A DNA stretch of 64,000 nucleotides from an uncultured bacterium (GCA_964350245.1 CAYGJC010000009.1:1951-65950), one strand, 5' to 3'; shown: positions 5,617-42,446, counted from the first letter of the stretch. The notes: a model not told the origin generated them from the sequence alone. Program-made: numbers and translations.

Positions 5617-6492
5617 TTAGTCGCGGTCTTCGGTGCGGTGGTTCAACTCGCCGTAACGCAGCTGCCCCGTCCAGTTGAGCTTGGTGCGCAGAGTGGAAAA
5701 ATAATCAGATCGGGATAAATTGACCATCTTAAATGTGCGCTTTGCAGGCAAAATGCTAAAGATTTCATTGGTCGTAAGCGAATGGCGGGAAAATCCATCA
5801 TAGGTGATCTCCACAGGCTCGTAATCACTCAAGTACTGTACCTCAATTTTCTCTTGAGGCATCAACACAATCGGGCGATTTGAGATGGTATGCGGACTGA
5901 TCGGTGTGATCACAAAAGCTTTGAGTTCGGGAGTGAGAATAGGCCCTCCGGCTGCAAGCGAGTAGGCTGTTGAGCCGTTGGGGGTCGAAATGATGACACC
6001 ATCGGCCGAAAAGGTGTTGAGGTATTTTCCATCCACGTGAATCGATAGGTCTATCAGGCAAGGGTTACGCGAACGGTGTACAACCATCTCGTTGACGGCC
6101 AGGCAGCGCTCTTGAGAGGGAGGGATCCCCTCCATCATCACCCGGTTTTCGATCATGAAGTTTCCGCTTATCAGCTCATCTAAACTAGGATAGAGGTCGG
6201 AAAGAGGAACGTCAGCCATAAAGCCAAGATGCCCGAGATTTACACCTAGAATAGGCGCGTCTAAAGTAGGGTAGTGATGGATGATCCGTAGGATGGTGCC
6301 ATCGCCCCCGAGGGAAATGATGAATTCAATTGCATCAGGAGCTACAGAGGAGAGAGGAGGCACCCCGAGATCAGCAGCTTCATCATCACGTGCAACGACC
6401 TGTACGCCTTTTTCTACCAGGTAGTGCGCCACCTTTTTGGAAATCCCGAACGACTCTCTTTTGTTCATGTTCGCAAAGAGGGCGACAATCAC
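5617..6492 (-). CDS. nadK: NAD kinase
   Basis: GGDGTILR motif, ...NGSTAYSLAAGGPI block, and length about 290 aa. The start abuts the dxs stop. Confidence 0.9.
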   Translation of the reverse strand: MIVALFANMNKRESFGISKKVAHYLVEKGVQVVARDDEAADLGVPPLSSVAPDAIEFIISLGGDGTILRIIHHYPTLDAPILGVNLGHLGFMADVPLSDLYPSLDELISGNFMIENRVMMEGIPPSQERCLAVNEMVVHRSRNPCLIDLSIHVDGKYLNTFSADGVIISTPNGSTAYSLAAGGPILTPELKAFVITPISPHTISNRPIVLMPQEKIEVQYLSDYEPVEITYDGFSRHSLTTNEIFSILPAKRTFKMVNLSRSDYFSTLRTKLNWTGQLRYGELNHRTEDRD

Positions 6493-8388
6493 TTATGTTT
6501 TCTCCGCATACTTGTGAAAAGTAAAGTGGGCCATTACCTGCTGCAAAATTTTCTCAGGAGTGAGCCCTACTTCTTGTAATAACTCTTTATACCCCCCTTG
6601 TTCAACAAAAGTTTCAGGAATGCCAAAATTCAGTGTTTCCACCTGACCAAAATTATGCCGCATCAAAAATTCATTGATCTCTGAGCCAAGCCCCCCTTTT
6701 AAGGAGTGCTCTTCAATCGTAATGATGCGGTTATGGGTCAGTAAAAGTTTGCTAAAAAGGTCGGTATCCAAGGGTTTTACAAAGATCGGATCGACAACTG
6801 TTGCATGAATTCCTCTTTGCTCCAGCTGGGCACGGACGTTCAGAGCTGTTTCACAATGATGTCCAAGCGCTACAATCAAGAGGTCATCTCCTTGGGCTAG
6901 CACCTCTCCTTTTCCAAGGGGGCGGGGGCGTAAAGGGGTTTCTGAAACATCAGTAGGGAGATTGGGATAGCGGATCGCAGTCGGTTTTTTCCAACTGAAA
7001 GCCGATTCTAAAAGCTCTTTGAGCAGTTGACCGTTGCGCGGTTGGCAAATCACCATACCGGGCATGGCGCGGAGGAAACTGATCTCATAAATACCGTGGT
7101 GAGTCGAGCCATCGGCAGCAGAAAGTCCTCCTCTATCAACAGCAAAGACGACGGGGATTTCTTGTAGACAGACGTCTTGGAAAAGATTGTCCAAAGCGCG
7201 TTGAAAAAAGGTAGCATAAATGGAACAGACAACGTTTAAATCGCCTGTTTTGCCCAGCCCGCCTGCAAAGGTAACGGCATGACCTTCTGCGATGCCCACA
7301 TCAAAAAAACGATCGGGGAAATGGTCGTAAAAAGGATCGAGGCAAGAACCGAGTGACATCGCCGGTGTGACAACCGTTAGGCGGGGGTCTTTTTTACCCA
7401 TCTCGACCATCTGTTTGCCAAAAATTTTGGGAAACGTGGGCTTTTTAGACGTAGTGGGGTGGAACTCACACGTTTTAGGATCAAAGGGCTTAGCTCCATG
7501 ATAGGCAGTAGGATCCTGCTCGGCCCTCTCAACTCCTTGTCCCTTTTTAGTAAAGACGTGCACAATAATGGGCATAGAGAGATCTTTAACGGCTTGAAAA
7601 ACAGCGAGCAGCTTCTTGATGTCATGTCCATCAATAGGTCCAATATAGGAAAGACCAAATTGCTCAAAAAAAGGAGCAGAACTGACGAGATTTTTTACCG
7701 ATTCGGTCAATTTCACTCCTTGCTTAGCAAGCGAGGTGCCGCAAATGGGGATTTTGGAAACAAGCGTTTCAAGTTCCCGTTTCCAGCGACTAGTTGTGGG
7801 ATTACTCAGTAAGCGGCTGAGAATGTTTGTGATACCTCCGACATTTTTGGAGATAGACATCTCGTTGTCGTTGAGAATCATCACAAAGCGACTCAAATCG
7901 CGGGGGATATTGTTGAGGGCCTCCAATGAGAGCCCACAAGTGAGAGTGGCATCGCCGATAACGGGAATAATATGGCGCTCTTTTTGGGCCAGATCGCGCG
8001 CTTGGGCCATTCCCAGACCTAAAGAAAGCGCTGTACCGGCATGACCGGCGTAAAAGTGGTCGTGTTCCGACTCTTTGGGGTGAGCAAAACCGCTTAGTCC
8101 GCCTCCTTTTCGAATCTTGTCAAACCGGTCGTCATTTCTTCCGGTGAGGAGCTTGTGTGTATACGTTTGGTGACTCACATCAAAAATAAAGGCGTCATCA
8201 GGCGAGTGAAAAACATAGTGAAGGGCTAAAGAGAGCTCCACACTTCCCATATTAGAGGCCAGATGGCCCCCATTGACGGAAAGAACGCGCACGATGCGGT
8301 CGCGAATTTCTTGAGCAAGCTCTTTTAAATCGGGGATGGAGAGGCGTTTTAAGTCGGCCGGCGACTGGATTTTGTCGAGATGGGTCAC
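6493..8388 (-). CDS. dxs: 1-deoxy-D-xylulose-5-phosphate synthase
   Basis: [13 protein letters not shown], the TPP-binding [15 protein letters not shown] and [13 protein letters not shown] are present across a full-length 631-aa product. Confidence 0.95.
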
Positions 8389-16350: not shown

Positions 16351-16977
16351 TTTTGATAGAAGCATTGGAGTGGCACCTAATTCAAAAGGGTCAACGTTGA
16401 TCACCTTAAAACCCAACTTCTGATAAAAGCCTTCTGCCTCTTTATTGACTTCGACATAAACAGGGTACTGACTGTCATGCAATATCTTGTTGACAAGTGC
16501 TCTTGCAGATCCAGCAGTGCGCTCTGCATTTCCCTCACTTCGATCCACATTTTTGGGTGACGTGACCAAGTAATAGATATAACACGTATTTAGCTTAGAG
16601 TTACTTAACTCAATTGGATGCTCCCAACACACAATCGCCAGTGCCTGGACGACACCGTTTGCCTTCGCAGCTACAATCTCATAGTCCTTCCAGTAGTCTT
16701 CGCTGCCTTGATTGGAGGAGGCTTGTTTTGCTTCAATAAATCTACCAACTAATTTCGAAATTCTACTACACGCTTGCAGATCCTCATGCAAGCTGCCTGC
16801 TAGTTTTTTCGCACGGCTTTTCGCGTCCACATCCCAGTGTTGAGCAATTTGTTTGATAGGCTCGAGTTCTTTACTTTTGATGCGATCGACAGAGATTTCT
16901 TGTTCAGACAATTGTAGTAGAGCACTGGTCACTAAAACAGGTGCTGCACCACCGAGATGTTGAGAGGGCGTTGACAT
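16297..16977 (-). CDS. GNAT-fold acetyltransferase-like protein with an N-terminal extension not recognised as any domain
   Basis: C-terminal half has GNAT-like elements (ERTAGSARALVNKIL; AEGFYQKLGFKVI). The first 90 or so aa match no recognisable domain. It is a stand-alone transcription unit. Confidence 0.5.
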   Translation of the reverse strand: MSTPSQHLGGAAPVLVTSALLQLSEQEISVDRIKSKELEPIKQIAQHWDVDAKSRAKKLAGSLHEDLQACSRISKLVGRFIEAKQASSNQGSEDYWKDYEIVAAKANGVVQALAIVCWEHPIELSNSKLNTCYIYYLVTSPKNVDRSEGNAERTAGSARALVNKILHDSQYPVYVEVNKEAEGFYQKLGFKVINVDPFELGATPMLLSKLASPRVECDAETAEQHS

Positions 16978-17044
16978 ACTTTACCGATAAACTAGGAAAA
17001 TGCTAGAGCTTTCATCTATTTTAGGTAAACCGGGTAAAAACGCG

Positions 17045-19204
17045 TTAGCATTTTTTCCTTGGAGGAGGACCCGGTTCGAGCTTTAGAGAGACTGAAAACC
17101 GGTTGTCGTCGGCCTCACGCTTTTCATAGATAAACTTAAAGTGCCAATGCTTGTACAAAACTGTTCCGAGCTCCGCTTGAAACTCTAAGTAAGGATCTTG
17201 CCTCTCTCTATTCCAACCGTGACGCATATCAAACTTTCCGGTCCAATCGGGGGTAAAGCGGATAAATGTCCGAAATAAGAAAGTGTCCCGACGGTCTGAG
17301 AGGACAGAATCTTCGAGCTCTTGTTCTGTCCGGACCGTTTCAAGGATGAAGTTATAAAAGTCAGCTTTGCGCCAATCATATTGACTGCGATGTCGATACT
17401 CGACGCTGAAGGCTAGATGGGTGCTAAGTGTCCAGTCAATACGTGCATTGTAGTAGTCCACAAGCTTGTTACGGAAGTTCCAAGCTGTATCCACACCGAT
17501 AAACATCCGTTGATACGGCTGCCACTCAATATCCAGATAGGCTTTGGGAATGGCTTGAGGAATGGTTTTCTCATTAAAGAAAGCATTGGTCCAAAGATTG
17601 ATCCAAAGGGGACGGGCAATGCCACACGGCGCCTTAACAAAGAAGCTGTTGGCCACACCAAAGCGCATGAGGTTGAGCCTATCATACCCGTCGTCAAGGG
17701 TAAAAATAAAGTGGTGGTCATCGGCAACGCGTGGCTGTGTGAGATAACGGTAATGGAGATAAGGCTCAATGACATGTTTATAGTTGGCTCCACATCTTGA
17801 TAGAGCGGTGTCGAATCGAAACCCGAGCTCACCAATAGCTTGGCCGGCAGAAGCACCGCCTGGACTATTGCTATAGGCAATACCGATAAAACCGGCTTCA
17901 GGCGTAGCTGTGAAAGGGCCAAAGAAAAAGGGGCGGTAAAAATGCGGATAGGTGAAAATGCGCCCGGCATGAAAGTCGTCTCGATTAATGTCTTCGCTAA
18001 ATGTATAATTGAGGTAACCGGCCCTGGTGGTATTTTCAAATAGAATGCCCGTATAGGGGATCTCAAAGGGATGAAGGTTAAAAACGAGGGTAGGCAGCTC
18101 TTGGTTTACAGATTGGAACTGGTTGACACGCACACGAGAGAATAGATTGGCGATCCAGGAGGTTTCTTGCCGCCTAAAGGCAATTTGCGTGCGGCCGGCT
18201 GTCGGTAAGTCAAAATCTTGAATATAGAAATCGGCTGCCATCTCAGCGTCGCTGACGTAATCATACATCCCTTCAATACTAGTACCGTAAATACAGTCGT
18301 AAAAGGTTCCCTGTAGCCGATAACGATCCCGGTCGTTGGGATCGTCGATGGCGATATCGTGAGCATAATAACTGCGGGTATAAAACTCGGTGGGCCTATG
18401 TTTGGGATTGTAGCGGGTCTCGATTCCACCACCTAAGCCGTGTCCGAAAAAGCCGTCGAGGCGGGCCACTCCTTTTAAGTCTCCCCATGATAAAAAGCGG
18501 TAGAGCAAACTGAGGTGGGAGCCTAAAAAACCTCCCCAGCCAAATTTGACGGCGAAGGGAGAGCGTCCACGATTGTCCAGGTCGAGTTTGACTTTGGGAA
18601 ACCAAAAAAGAGGAACTTTAGAGGCCCAAACGTTGATGTTATCGGCTGTGACTACTTTGTTGGGGGTTAAGGTAATGGTTGGAGAGCGGATGACAACATC
18701 GGGCCGCCCGCCTTCTGAGGTCGTTAAGTAACCTCCCAAAGCTGTCAGATTTCCTGAATCCAGTAGTAAAATTTCATCTCCACCGACATACCAAGGGGGC
18801 TGGGCGGTCTTTCCGTTGATCAAAAAGCCGGTGTGGGTAATGAAATCATAGTAGAGATAGTCTCCAACTAAAACCCATTGACGGTAATCGATCAGCAGAT
18901 TTCCCTCACACTGAACGGTGAAAACAGGGGGATCGCACTCAAGGTTGCGGGTGTAGACGAGTTTTTGGGCCTGCACGCGAAAGTGGGGGGCGGTTAGGAT
19001 ACCTCCCTCATCAGTGGAGAGAACTCCTTCCTCATAAAGGGGATTGCGTAGGTCAACAATGACGTTCTCTTCAATTTCGCGGAGCGGCTCTTCGAGGGGG
19101 CGGCACCGGTAACATTCGGTTTTCCAAATGCGGGGAGGGTCGGTGAAGAGCTCTTCAGCGATAAGAGGAGAGGCAAGCAGGAAGAGGAGTAAATAGCGTA
19201 TCAT
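17045..19204 (-). CDS. lptD: LPS-assembly outer-membrane protein LptD/OstA-like
   Basis: Signal peptide. An OstA-like N-domain followed by a large beta-barrel. VPLFWFPKVKLDLDNRGRSPF resembles the LptD (vPvfY.P....RkSGfL) block. Confidence 0.7.
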   Translation of the reverse strand: MIRYLLLFLLASPLIAEELFTDPPRIWKTECYRCRPLEEPLREIEENVIVDLRNPLYEEGVLSTDEGGILTAPHFRVQAQKLVYTRNLECDPPVFTVQCEGNLLIDYRQWVLVGDYLYYDFITHTGFLINGKTAQPPWYVGGDEILLLDSGNLTALGGYLTTSEGGRPDVVIRSPTITLTPNKVVTADNINVWASKVPLFWFPKVKLDLDNRGRSPFAVKFGWGGFLGSHLSLLYRFLSWGDLKGVARLDGFFGHGLGGGIETRYNPKHRPTEFYTRSYYAHDIAIDDPNDRDRYRLQGTFYDCIYGTSIEGMYDYVSDAEMAADFYIQDFDLPTAGRTQIAFRRQETSWIANLFSRVRVNQFQSVNQELPTLVFNLHPFEIPYTGILFENTTRAGYLNYTFSEDINRDDFHAGRIFTYPHFYRPFFFGPFTATPEAGFIGIAYSNSPGGASAGQAIGELGFRFDTALSRCGANYKHVIEPYLHYRYLTQPRVADDHHFIFTLDDGYDRLNLMRFGVANSFFVKAPCGIARPLWINLWTNAFFNEKTIPQAIPKAYLDIEWQPYQRMFIGVDTAWNFRNKLVDYYNARIDWTLSTHLAFSVEYRHRSQYDWRKADFYNFILETVRTEQELEDSVLSDRRDTFLFRTFIRFTPDWTGKFDMRHGWNRERQDPYLEFQAELGTVLYKHWHFKFIYEKREADDNRFSVSLKLEPGPPPRKKC

Positions 19205-35036: not shown

Positions 35037-35090
35037 AATACTGTTTATTGCTTGCGAAATTTTTAATAATCATTACACTATTAGAATCTT

Positions 35091-35345
35091 ATGGCAGTAT
35101 CATTTCCGCTCATTACATGTTATCGAGGAGTAGAGCAGAGTTCAGAGGTCTGTTTTGTTCTTCCTGTCGATCGTACAACAGGGCTTGTTTTAGCTCTTTT
35201 GGGAGGAAGCATGCTCCTGATCGGTGTTTATCTGATGTATTGCGGCATTGGGACCATTCCTGCCAGCATGAGTGGCTTTGCTCTAGCTCTTTTCGGGGTG
35301 GTCACGCATTTCACAGGGCTCGTCCTGACTGCAAAATCTTTGTAA
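35091..35345 (+). CDS. Small Inc-like membrane protein
   Basis: Bilobed hydrophobic domain LVLALLGGSMLLIGVYLMYCGI-GTIPASMS-GFALALFGVVTHFTGLVLTA. Preferred over the overlapping 35048..35359 frame, whose product is Cys/Arg/Ser-rich. Confidence 0.5.
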   Translation: MAVSFPLITCYRGVEQSSEVCFVLPVDRTTGLVLALLGGSMLLIGVYLMYCGIGTIPASMSGFALALFGVVTHFTGLVLTAKSL

Positions 35346-35421
35346 AATTATTATTTTAAATACCACCTTAATAAAACTTTGTTAAACTATTAACAGATAA
35401 AGAGTTAATGGGAGGTGTGCC

Positions 35422-35667
35422 ATGTCTACACCAGCTTTAGCAGAAAATAGAGCCATGCATTCAGCGGCCGCTATTCCGGTCAATGATGTGAAAGTGAAAG
35501 ATAGCTGCATGCTATTTGTGGTGGTGCTTTTGGCTACCGTAGCACTTGCCGTTGTAGGCTATCAATTAGGGAGCTCTCTTTATCTTTCTGGTGGCATTTC
35601 AGCTGCCGTTTTAGGAACAGCTTGGATAGGGTGTGCATGCTCTCTCTATTTCTTCAGTTCGCGTTAA
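35422..35667 (+). CDS. Small Inc-like membrane protein
   Basis: GGGAGG SD sequence. CMLFVVVLLATVALAVVGYQLG-SSLYLSG-GISAAVLGTAWIGCACSLYFF. Confidence 0.55.
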   Translation: MSTPALAENRAMHSAAAIPVNDVKVKDSCMLFVVVLLATVALAVVGYQLGSSLYLSGGISAAVLGTAWIGCACSLYFFSSR

Positions 35668-35748
35668 AAAAAATCTTATTCTTCTCTTAATAATATTTTT
35701 GTGTTAAAATTCATATCTATTTTTAGTTAATTAAATTAAGGGGTAAAA

Positions 35749-41295: not shown

Positions 41296-41313
41296 TAAGT
41301 TGTTAACTCACAT

Positions 41314-41386
41314 CGCGGGATGGAGCAGTGGTTAGCTCGTTGGGCTCATAACCCAAAGGTCGGAGGTTCGAATCCTTCTCCCGCTA
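41314..41386 (+). tRNA. Initiator tRNA-fMet (anticodon CAT)
   Basis: Cloverleaf drawn by hand: CGCGGGA/TCCCGCT acceptor with a C1-U72 mismatch. Anticodon stem TTGGG/CCCAA gives three G-C pairs next to the loop CTCATAA. T-loop TTCGAAT. CCA is not encoded. Confidence 0.9.
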
Positions 41387-41408
41387 TTTTCCTCAGTTTA
41401 TTTTTTGT

Positions 41409-41482
41409 GGCGGCATAGCTCAGTTGGTTAGAGCAACGGAATCATAATCCGTGGGTCGTTGGTTCAAGTCCGACTGCCGCTA
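41409..41482 (+). tRNA. tRNA with CAT anticodon (elongator Met or lysidine-modified Ile2; not distinguishable by eye)
   Basis: Cloverleaf: GGCGGCA/TGCCGCT acceptor (G1-U72), D-arm GCTC-AGTTGGTTA-GAGC, anticodon arm ACGGA-ATCATAA-TCCGT, T-arm GTTGG-TTCAAGT-CCGAC. Confidence 0.9.
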
Positions 41483-41670
41483 CTCTTCATCCTCTCTATT
41501 GCTCATTGGATTAAAATTCGGATTGGCACATGCCAGTCTCTTTGCTACACCCATTAGACCATTAATTAAACGACAAAATACCGCAGCGAATAGAACACAG
41601 CGCGGGACTCACTCTTTGAAAAAAATAAACAAGGAGAAGTCATGAATTTTTCTACACAGCCCTACACAGC

Positions 41671-42240
41671 CTAGTCATGACAAAATCTCTTGAGTTCAGC
41701 GTGGTTATTTAATTCATTTCGTGAAATTAATCCTAATTTCAACCCGTCATTGATTGCTTGAGCGATCAAGTCAATCGATAATTTCCTGTCGATTAGGATA
41801 TCTATCAGGGTTCTGATGGGTGTGGTAACACAATACCCTTGCTGCCTACGGATTTCATCTTCTCTAAGATCGGCATAATGAAGTGTTAATACCTTAGGAA
41901 TAGTAATACTCTTGCGAAATGCATTAGGGACAGTTAGGTGCATTTTAGAAGGCATGACATCCGATAGCTCATAAATATCGAGAGCCGTTTCATGAGACCA
42001 GATTCCTTGATTCTCCCCCTTGCGATTTTGGCTCCATAAACTCCATATAACAAGCTCGGGACGCTCGGTGACTGGATACCGAGCTAATCGATAAATCCCG
42101 CGCATTTCTTTCAACCATTCACCTGCATTAAGATATCTTTGAAAATGGGAACGATAATAGCCACTTTCTTCGGCTTGTTTGCAGGTAAAGTAGCCTTGCT
42201 GTCGATCTGCAATTTTAAAAAGAAGGTCCTTATTTGCCAT
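41671..42240 (-). CDS. AbiEi-family (type IV toxin-antitoxin) antitoxin / transcriptional regulator; orphan
   Basis: N-terminal wHTH-like QQGYFTCKQAEESGYYRSHFQRYLNAGEWLKEMRGIYRL is typical of the AbiEi_4 domain. No AbiEii nucleotidyltransferase gene is adjacent. Confidence 0.7.
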   Translation of the reverse strand: MANKDLLFKIADRQQGYFTCKQAEESGYYRSHFQRYLNAGEWLKEMRGIYRLARYPVTERPELVIWSLWSQNRKGENQGIWSHETALDIYELSDVMPSKMHLTVPNAFRKSITIPKVLTLHYADLREDEIRRQQGYCVTTPIRTLIDILIDRKLSIDLIAQAINDGLKLGLISRNELNNHAELKRFCHD

Positions 42241-42338
42241 AAATAAATGCTACCAAAATGGTAACTTTTGTGTCATAAACAACGTTTTCTAATTTTTTAA
42301 ACTTTCTGTAAAGGACATGAATTGTAGACAAACCGCGC

Positions 42339-42379
42339 AATCGTAATCCGTGGGTCTTGGTTCAAGTCCGACTGCCGCT
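42339..42379 (+). repeat. Direct repeat: degenerate copy of the 3' half of the tRNA(CAT) gene (attR-like scar)
   Basis: AATCGTAATCCGTGGGTC-TTGGTTCAAGTCCGACTGCCGCT versus tRNA 41440-41481. There is one substitution (anticodon A to G) and one 1-nt deletion. Confidence 0.85.
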
Positions 42380-42446
42380 CACTTCTAAAGATGAGACGTC
42401 CACTCTATTAAAATGATCTCTGGAGTAGAAAAAGTACAATCGAGGG

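Follow-up and report, generated by a model that had tools for sequence, protein, structure and literature searches.

Probable remnant of a tRNA-Met(CAT)-targeted element retains abiEi without its toxin gene in an environmental chlamydia

Results

A one-gene islet between a tRNA-Met(CAT) gene and a copy of its 3' end

Here we analyse a 64-kb stretch of DNA from an uncultured bacterium (64,000 nucleotides, hereafter the window) in which a pair of tRNA(CAT) genes is followed by a single antitoxin gene and a partial, decayed copy of the second tRNA. The features of the locus are as follows, with positions counted along the window and the supporting evidence in brackets:

41313-41387, plus strand: initiator-type tRNA(CAT) (ARAGORN; Rfam tRNA, 65.7 bits)
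41409-41483, plus strand: intact tRNA-Met(CAT), the putative integration target, which would act as attL (ARAGORN; Rfam, 67.5 bits)
41484-41670, no strand: non-coding remnant of 187 bp, from the tRNA to the 3' end of abiEi (blastn; tandem repeat)
41671-42240, minus strand: abiEi, predicted full-length type IV toxin-antitoxin antitoxin and transcriptional repressor (Pfam, PADLOC, fold)
42240-42274, minus strand: imperfect 16-3-16 inverted repeat, putative AbiEi operator (conservation and covariation in 18 homologues)
42247-42276, minus strand: sigma-70-like promoter, ATGACA, 18-nt spacer, TG-TAGCAT (consensus scan)
42318-42335, plus strand: putatively element-derived arm TGAATTGTAGACAAACC, 17 nt of non-tRNA sequence abutting the repeat (blastn)
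42336-42381, plus strand: decayed tRNA 3' copy, the putative attR (CAT to CGT; 1-nt deletion before the T stem)
42382-42446, plus strand: right-hand chromosomal flank (orthologous to the sequence that follows the repeat in a related locus, L009)

The 3' part of the tRNA-Met gene (approximately 41437-41483) forms the first copy of a direct repeat. The second copy, at 42339-42379, aligns to tRNA positions 32-73 over 42 columns with 95% identity; a single mismatch, which turns the anticodon from CAT to CGT, and one 1-nt gap set it apart, exactly as a sequence-only reading of this DNA had described it. At the cost of one further mismatch the second copy can be extended to 42336-42381, corresponding to about 45 nt of the tRNA 3' end, and comparison with the orthologous flank of L009 points to a probable second 1-nt deletion after GCT (GCTAC to GCT-C). 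The insert thus lies between an intact tRNA and a direct repeat of its 3' end (41437-41483 versus 42336-42381), the arrangement of an integration scar. With a GC content of 0.395, its 855 bp (41484-42338) fall below all segments of that length sampled across the 64 kb (mean 0.474, sd 0.023), which bears out the earlier impression of an insert more AT-rich than its surroundings. The only other stretch near a GC of 0.40 (35037-35748) is an ordinary intergenic region between divergent genes for RNase R and a 578-aa hypothetical protein.

The initiator-type tRNA(CAT) is the upstream neighbour in a conserved leuS-kdtA-tRNA-tRNA order and is kept in 15 relatives, while the sequence of the tRNA-Met(CAT) is identical to that of the tRNA of two related loci, L009 and L013. 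These two tRNAs alone reach the Rfam gathering score; other Rfam matches, in the islet and in a repeat unit of L013 described below, lie far below threshold. The acceptor stem of the tRNA at 41409-41483 opens with a G1-U72 wobble in the register that keeps U8, and its CCA is not encoded. At the DNA level, CAT is the anticodon of both elongator tRNA-Met and the lysidine-modified tRNA-Ile2.

The islet encodes an apparently intact AbiEi

The sole credible open reading frame between the repeats runs from 42240 to 41671 on the minus strand and encodes 189 aa. The AbiEi-type gene that the sequence-only reading placed here holds up over its full length: Pfam AbiEi_4 (PF13338) matches residues 6-53 (E 2.2e-8, 34.5 bits against a curated cutoff of 25 bits), and the PADLOC AbiEi profile covers residues 3-183 (E 1.4e-62), encompassing a two-domain architecture. 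An NCBIfam profile search gave no AbiEi match. Of 603 homologues, nearly all are 190-200 aa long, and the protein keeps 36/36 of the residues that are invariant among 32 homologues. A sequence search of the PDB returned marginal matches only (E 0.3-0.6), making a fold search necessary; with an AlphaFold2 model (pLDDT 80.7) as query, the best solved match in Foldseek was Streptococcus agalactiae AbiEi (6Y8Q_A, E 6.6e-9, TM 0.57 over 200 columns, spanning the full length), followed at rank 3-4 by Mycobacterium tuberculosis Rv2827c (1ZEL). Together, the profiles, predicted fold and conserved residues identify the gene as encoding what is, on sequence and model, an intact two-domain AbiEi of the PF13338/COG5340 antitoxin family.

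A conserved inverted repeat covers the putative abiEi promoter

The sequence-only reading had proposed a 13-bp palindrome (42251-42263; 5-nt arms around a 3-nt spacer), 10 nt upstream of the abiEi ATG, as an autoregulatory operator. Its coordinates are correct, but the palindrome alone is unremarkable, with 0.67 sites expected per window at no more than one mismatch, and it proves to be only the core of a larger 16-3-16 inverted repeat of about 35 bp that spans from the -35 element to the start codon, taking in the A of the ATG. A gap-free alignment of the sequences upstream of the gene in 18 homologues shows the 16-3-16 repeat at a conserved position, ending at the start codon. Across this alignment 86.5% of cells are paired (G-T counted as a pair), against 27-52% in slid controls with the partner shifted by 1-3 columns, and double-sided changes number 24, against 11.1 +/- 2.4 in shuffles (0/500). 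By strict Watson-Crick pairing, the window copy has 11/16 pairs, at the low end of the family range of 11-15. This conservation and arm covariation support the idea of a predicted operator.

The promoter-like layout over the inverted repeat is the same in the homologues. The abiEi -10 element ends 6 nt before the ATG and no Shine-Dalgarno sequence is found upstream of the gene, which together suggest a leaderless mRNA; the abiEi transcript is thus probably both leaderless and self-repressed. An inverted-repeat operator with a short spacer overlapping the promoter is the arrangement of AbiE operons. In S. agalactiae, AbiEi represses its own promoter by binding two overlying inverted repeats with a 3-bp gap between them, one AbiEi monomer to each (PMC3985639; PMC7319586). 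No second operator-like AbiEi site was found within the 64-kb window.

Homology to the toxin gene ends four nucleotides after its start

Across the 64-kb window, tblastn with three AbiEii sequences gave noise only (E at least 0.2) and three integrase queries gave no match, in the islet or elsewhere; this agrees with the earlier statement that neither AbiEii nor integrase remains. Hence abiEi has no DUF1814/AbiEii gene directly downstream and the tRNA has no integrase beside it, nor did lenient tblastn and blastn-short find abiEii remnants in the 187-bp spacer. Among judgeable homologous loci, about 20/24 (including L001, L002 and L056) have abiEii directly after abiEi, usually overlapping its last codons. 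Homology of the window to the operons of L056, L001 and L002 stops 4 nt into abiEii, after ATGA, and as a result the window's AbiEi is 3 codons shorter than its close relatives. At exactly this end of homology, where abiEii is missing, the 187-bp remnant closes with a 10-bp tandem, CTACACAGCC x2 (41652-41671), which may be filler DNA from the deletion event. At its other end, the first ~17 nt of the remnant resemble the right flank of a tRNA fragment in L002 (blastn, window 41436-41500 versus L002 12121-12185, 92%), and the rest has no match in any locus compared.

Independent toxin losses have occurred at other breakpoints in three homologous loci: L059 retains 41 codons of abiEii, L034 retains 21, and L030 retains 0 and has an altered AbiEi C-terminus. 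These truncations indicate that plain toxin loss is a common fate. They also bear on the idea that AbiEi is not an orphan at all, and that an AbiEii partner or other DUF1814 toxin encoded elsewhere in the genome works with it in trans. In favour of such a partner, the toxin search covered 64 kb of the genome, and abiEi is intact and under purifying selection like that of toxin-linked copies (dN/dS about 0.1). Yet in homologues the toxin gene lies directly downstream of abiEi, the window has a clean breakpoint 4 nt into abiEii, and the three truncations arose independently; we therefore consider a partner in trans quite unlikely.

Pairwise dN/dS of abiEi is 0.08-0.14 for all pairs and 0.10-0.13 between orphans, not above that of paired copies. 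At sites that are uniform in the other five close homologues, the window has 7 lineage-specific replacements, and each of the others has 4-7 by the same count. Neither pairwise dN/dS nor these counts give any sign of relaxed constraint on the orphan; being pairwise and not branch-specific, however, the dN/dS values mostly reflect time before toxin loss and so do not in themselves demonstrate maintenance of the orphan.

The same tRNA carries varied cargo in relatives

Species-representative genomes were scanned with KdtA, which led to a set of chlamydial MAGs; these and the other loci compared carry L numbers. The leuS-kdtA-tRNA-tRNA order is conserved in these MAGs, 5 of which also keep the abhydrolase-PFK side, and the content after the second tRNA varies, comprising an empty site as well as alternative cargo. 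At the empty site, in L010, the abhydrolase gene starts 385 bp after the tRNA with no repeat. In the closest relative found, L009 (KdtA 86% aa identity), a 0.94-kb islet with an NYN-domain gene lies between the tRNA and a 39-nt repeat. The right-hand flank of L009 is orthologous to that of the window (blastn, window 42341-42402 versus L009 12376-12440, 88%); these flanks read ACTTCTAAAG in the window, ACTTTTAAAG in L009 and ACTTTTCATT in L010, and the first bases of the window's flank resemble the flank after the tRNA at the L010 empty site. The empty site that the sequence-only reading had proposed to look for thus exists in another species, but did not turn up within the same strain: an exact look-up of the neighbouring ORF found abiEi on 10/10 contigs carrying that ORF, and no empty-site allele among them. 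All Logan contigs with the exact AbiEi (L004-L008) end inside the tRNA-fMet/tRNA-Met pair (window 41332-41453), which suggests assembly-graph branching from shared tRNA sequence or upstream strain variation.

Other toxin-antitoxin-type modules occupy the site in L015, L025 and L014 (a HigB-like pair, TacA/GNAT, Fic, and DUF4258 with an HTH gene), the HigB-like toxin-antitoxin pair being cargo of L015 and Fic of L025. In L001, which is syntenic, the tRNA is followed immediately by an intact abiEi-abiEii pair. The larger island with integrase and AbiEii that had been anticipated at this tRNA is found in L056, likewise syntenic, where kdtA and the tRNAs are followed by an integrase fragment, two unknown genes, abiEi, abiEii, an SDR gene and an MFS transporter gene. 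Beyond the latter lie the arm shared with the window and a tRNA-Met fragment; the complete tyrosine integrase gene (Phage_integrase, 1.8e-23) and the DnaB-like gene that come next form a second element in tandem.

tRNA-Met 3' fragments lie downstream of the same tRNA in L009, L013, L015, L017, L025 and L056, in keeping with the earlier suggestion of a recurrent integration hotspot, and in two of these loci (L009 and L015) the fragments bound integrase-less islets of 0.8-1.1 kb. Relatives do not share the same content, which would have spoken against that suggestion: L010 is empty, L009 has an NYN gene, and L056 and L001 have abiEi-abiEii.

Several further observations were made at these loci. 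At L009:12301-12421 lies a chimeric pseudo-tRNA that marks the boundary of the NYN-gene islet, itself at the site which the islet of the window occupies; this pseudo-tRNA joins ~20 nt of upstream sequence and the 5' ~60 nt of tRNA-fMet to the 3' 39 nt of tRNA-Met, the parts being fused at a shared AATCC. In the window, CACAGCGCGGGA (41596-41607) matches 41309-41320, which comprises 5 nt upstream of tRNA-fMet and its first 7 nt, at 11/12 nt; the match could be fortuitous, or could mark another tRNA fragment of the L009 kind. L002 has three tRNA-Met 3' fragments, with no full tRNA seen on the contig; all three fall within 1.7 kb (L002:12104-13760), on either side of a Legionella_OMP-family gene, fragments 1 and 3 are each followed by a copy of the same ~90-nt flank, and upstream lie an integrase fragment and resistance-like genes (AadA_C, APH, acetyltransferases). 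This stretch of L002 is a composite array of small cassettes. A conserved ~125-nt unit ending in the tRNA-Met T arm and 3' acceptor strand occurs at L013:11461-11795, in tandem with a 157-nt period, and at L002:13620-13739; it has a tRNA-like fold without a D arm, with a z-score of only -1.36, has no Rfam match, and may represent the att region of another family of elements. In L016 (11932-12732), a gene for a RING-finger (eukaryote-like E3 ligase) protein adjoins the same tRNA-Met, and no repeat was detected at that locus. On the 1.8-Mb contig of L001, frameshifts break both leuS and the PPi-phosphofructokinase gene into two ORFs apiece (5804-8331 and 16665-18283), as a result of either assembly errors or pseudogene formation.

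A shared arm ties the repeat to an integrase-bearing element family

In L002 and L056, too, tRNA-Met fragments are preceded by the arm TGAATTGTAGACAAACC that abuts the repeat of the window (blastn, window 42318-42385 versus L002 12104-12173, 93%; window 42318-42379 versus L056 13522-13584, 94%), with 3 changes in the window's arm relative to both. In L056, the tyrosine integrase gene begins about 155 bp after the arm-bearing tRNA fragment. That fragment has the window-type sequence and departs at several positions from the tRNA resident in L056, which indicates that the fragment travels with the element. For tRNA-targeting integrases, a repeat running from the anticodon arm to the 3' end of the tRNA is expected.

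These findings weigh on whether the repeat could have arisen through local duplication of the tRNA region by replication or recombination error, with abiEi arriving by another route and no site-specific integration. Relatives offer some precedent: in L013 and L017, the tRNA-fragment repeats take in 20 nt of downstream flank, as is typical of tandem duplication, and look like its product rather than att sites; L017 furthermore has duplicated paralogous genes, and the L009 repeat includes part of the neighbouring tRNA-fMet. The window's repeat, however, is preceded by 17 nt of non-tRNA sequence that also stands before the fragments of L002 and of L056, the latter followed by an integrase; it spans the anticodon arm to the tRNA 3' end as for tRNA-targeting integrases; and the insert has the lowest GC in the window. 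The shared arm ties the repeat to an integrase-bearing element family and argues against simple local duplication, to which we give very little credence. With no integrase left in the window, integration is something we infer rather than see.

Searches for a free or phage-borne form of the element, using the arm-plus-core pattern and AbiEi relatives, found none in IMG/VR, and PLSDB plasmids searched with the islet DNA gave no match. It is conceivable that the islet is still mobile, as a miniature element that an integrase supplied in trans could mobilise in cis. Both repeat copies and the element arm remain recognisable, and in several relatives tRNA fragments delimit islets of 0.8-1.1 kb with no integrase (L009, L015). 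Even so, the right copy carries an anticodon-loop substitution and has lost 1 nt at one or two places, the arm differs from those of L056 and L002 by 3 changes, the islet is present in 10/10 contigs of the strain, and the window has no integrase, all of which make present mobility the most remote of prospects.

The window's abiEi reads towards the tRNA, opposite in orientation to abiEi of L001 and L056. A simple deletion of an L056- or L001-type island was considered as the origin of the islet and rejected on this ground. The sequence-only reading of a decayed islet with recognisable att sites is thus supported, but not as a shortened version of these islands: the opposite orientation implies that the parent element is absent among the loci compared.

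Discussion

Taken together, we consider it highly probable that the islet is the decayed remnant of a tyrosine-integrase element in the 3' half of tRNA-Met(CAT) of an environmental chlamydia, keeping abiEi without its toxin. On entering the tRNA-Met(CAT) gene in its 3' half, such an element would have duplicated about 45 nt of the tRNA, leaving a functional tRNA at the left end and a non-functional copy at the right. The integrase, the AbiEii nucleotidyltransferase toxin and the remaining cargo would have gone by later deletion, most economically in one step starting just within attL and reaching codon 2 of abiEii; the simplest parent element for this would have carried abiEii-abiEi at its far end. 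What would remain is abiEi with its own promoter and operator, AbiEi probably being made from a leaderless transcript and repressing itself as two monomers on the 16-3-16 repeat over the promoter. Without its toxin, AbiEi would no longer form an addiction or abortive-infection module; perhaps it is a neutral leftover, or perhaps it confers immunity against AbiEii from related elements that repeatedly use this tRNA.

The islet belongs to known kinds of locus, namely tRNA-targeted islands, AbiE systems and orphan antitoxins. Tyrosine-integrase elements are known as tRNA-gene-targeted islands, as decayed remnants and in tandem accretions. Like such islands and remnants, the islet has an intact tRNA at one end, a tRNA 3' repeat at the other, and deviant composition, and the locus shows cargo that varies among relatives, empty sites, and tandem arrays with att-like junctions (L056, L002). 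Unlike a typical tRNA-targeted island, it consists of a single gene in 0.9 kb with no integrase, and its setting is environmental Chlamydiae, where it occupies the second member of the tRNA-fMet/tRNA-Met pair that follows kdtA.

As an AbiE system, the islet resembles those of S. agalactiae and Lactococcus (Dy et al., 2014, PMC3985639; 6Y8Q, PMC7319586) in having an antitoxin of ~190 aa and two domains. Like S. agalactiae AbiEi, the window's protein is predicted to have an N-terminal winged helix (AbiEi_4) and a C-terminal domain; its close homologues likewise stand in a bicistronic operon in which abiEii overlaps the end of abiEi, and the putative operator likewise has two inverted half-sites with a 3-bp spacer over the promoter. 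It departs from the S. agalactiae system in several respects: the toxin gene has been lost by deletion, each half-site measures about 16 nt as opposed to 23 (a 23-3-23 operator; PMC3985639), the operator runs into the start codon with no visible ribosome-binding site, so that the mRNA is probably leaderless, and sequence identity to 6Y8Q is only 18%. Rv2827c-Rv2826c of M. tuberculosis (1ZEL) has the same fold family and an antitoxin that autoregulates on promoter inverted repeats (PMC7319586), but Rv2827c is about 295 aa long and has four repeats with a 13-bp spacing per pair, and its toxin is present.

Like orphan antitoxins, the window's AbiEi and its putative autoregulatory site have been retained after toxin loss, a pattern that recurs in related lineages; measured against the anti-addiction hypothesis, what speaks for the present case is that the gene is intact, together with dN/dS values that are not specific to branches. 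Antitoxin-first loss from such a module is lethal, and for this reason toxin-first decay is the expected neutral path. AbiEi may instead be kept by selection, as an anti-addiction (immunity) factor or as a recruited regulator of host genes rather than a passive remnant. Consistent with this, abiEi is intact after four independent toxin losses (in the window, L059, L034 and L030), dN/dS between orphans is no higher than between paired copies, and AbiE-bearing elements keep arriving at this tRNA (L001, L056). Furthermore, an AbiEi with regulatory phenotypes is reported from Mesorhizobium (PMC8436566). Against it, pairwise dN/dS mostly predates toxin loss, toxin-first decay would be expected under neutrality, and the window has no second operator-like site. 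We regard selective retention as a minority possibility. More doubtful is a broader proposal, that in environmental Chlamydiae the tRNA-Met(CAT) downstream of kdtA is a standing landing pad that acquires small toxin-antitoxin and defence modules and sees them erode, AbiEi being repeatedly retained after toxin loss as protection against the AbiEii of whichever AbiE-bearing element arrives next.

The locus, read as an element remnant, offers a clean and well-bounded example of the toxin-first decay of a toxin-antitoxin module after integration, with parallel cases in relatives, and the comparative data define a conserved putative operator for this AbiEi subfamily. The locus leaves the present picture of AbiE systems and of tRNA-targeted islands unchanged. 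To our knowledge, the mobile-element biology of chlamydia-like bacteria is thinly described, and the islet marks a recurrent integration hotspot in these obligate intracellular organisms. Its interest is mild and lies in a hotspot tRNA used across environmental Chlamydiae and in several cases of an antitoxin kept after toxin loss; such repeated loss of the toxin with the antitoxin kept leaves room for an anti-addiction role, as yet unproven, for AbiEi in these bacteria.
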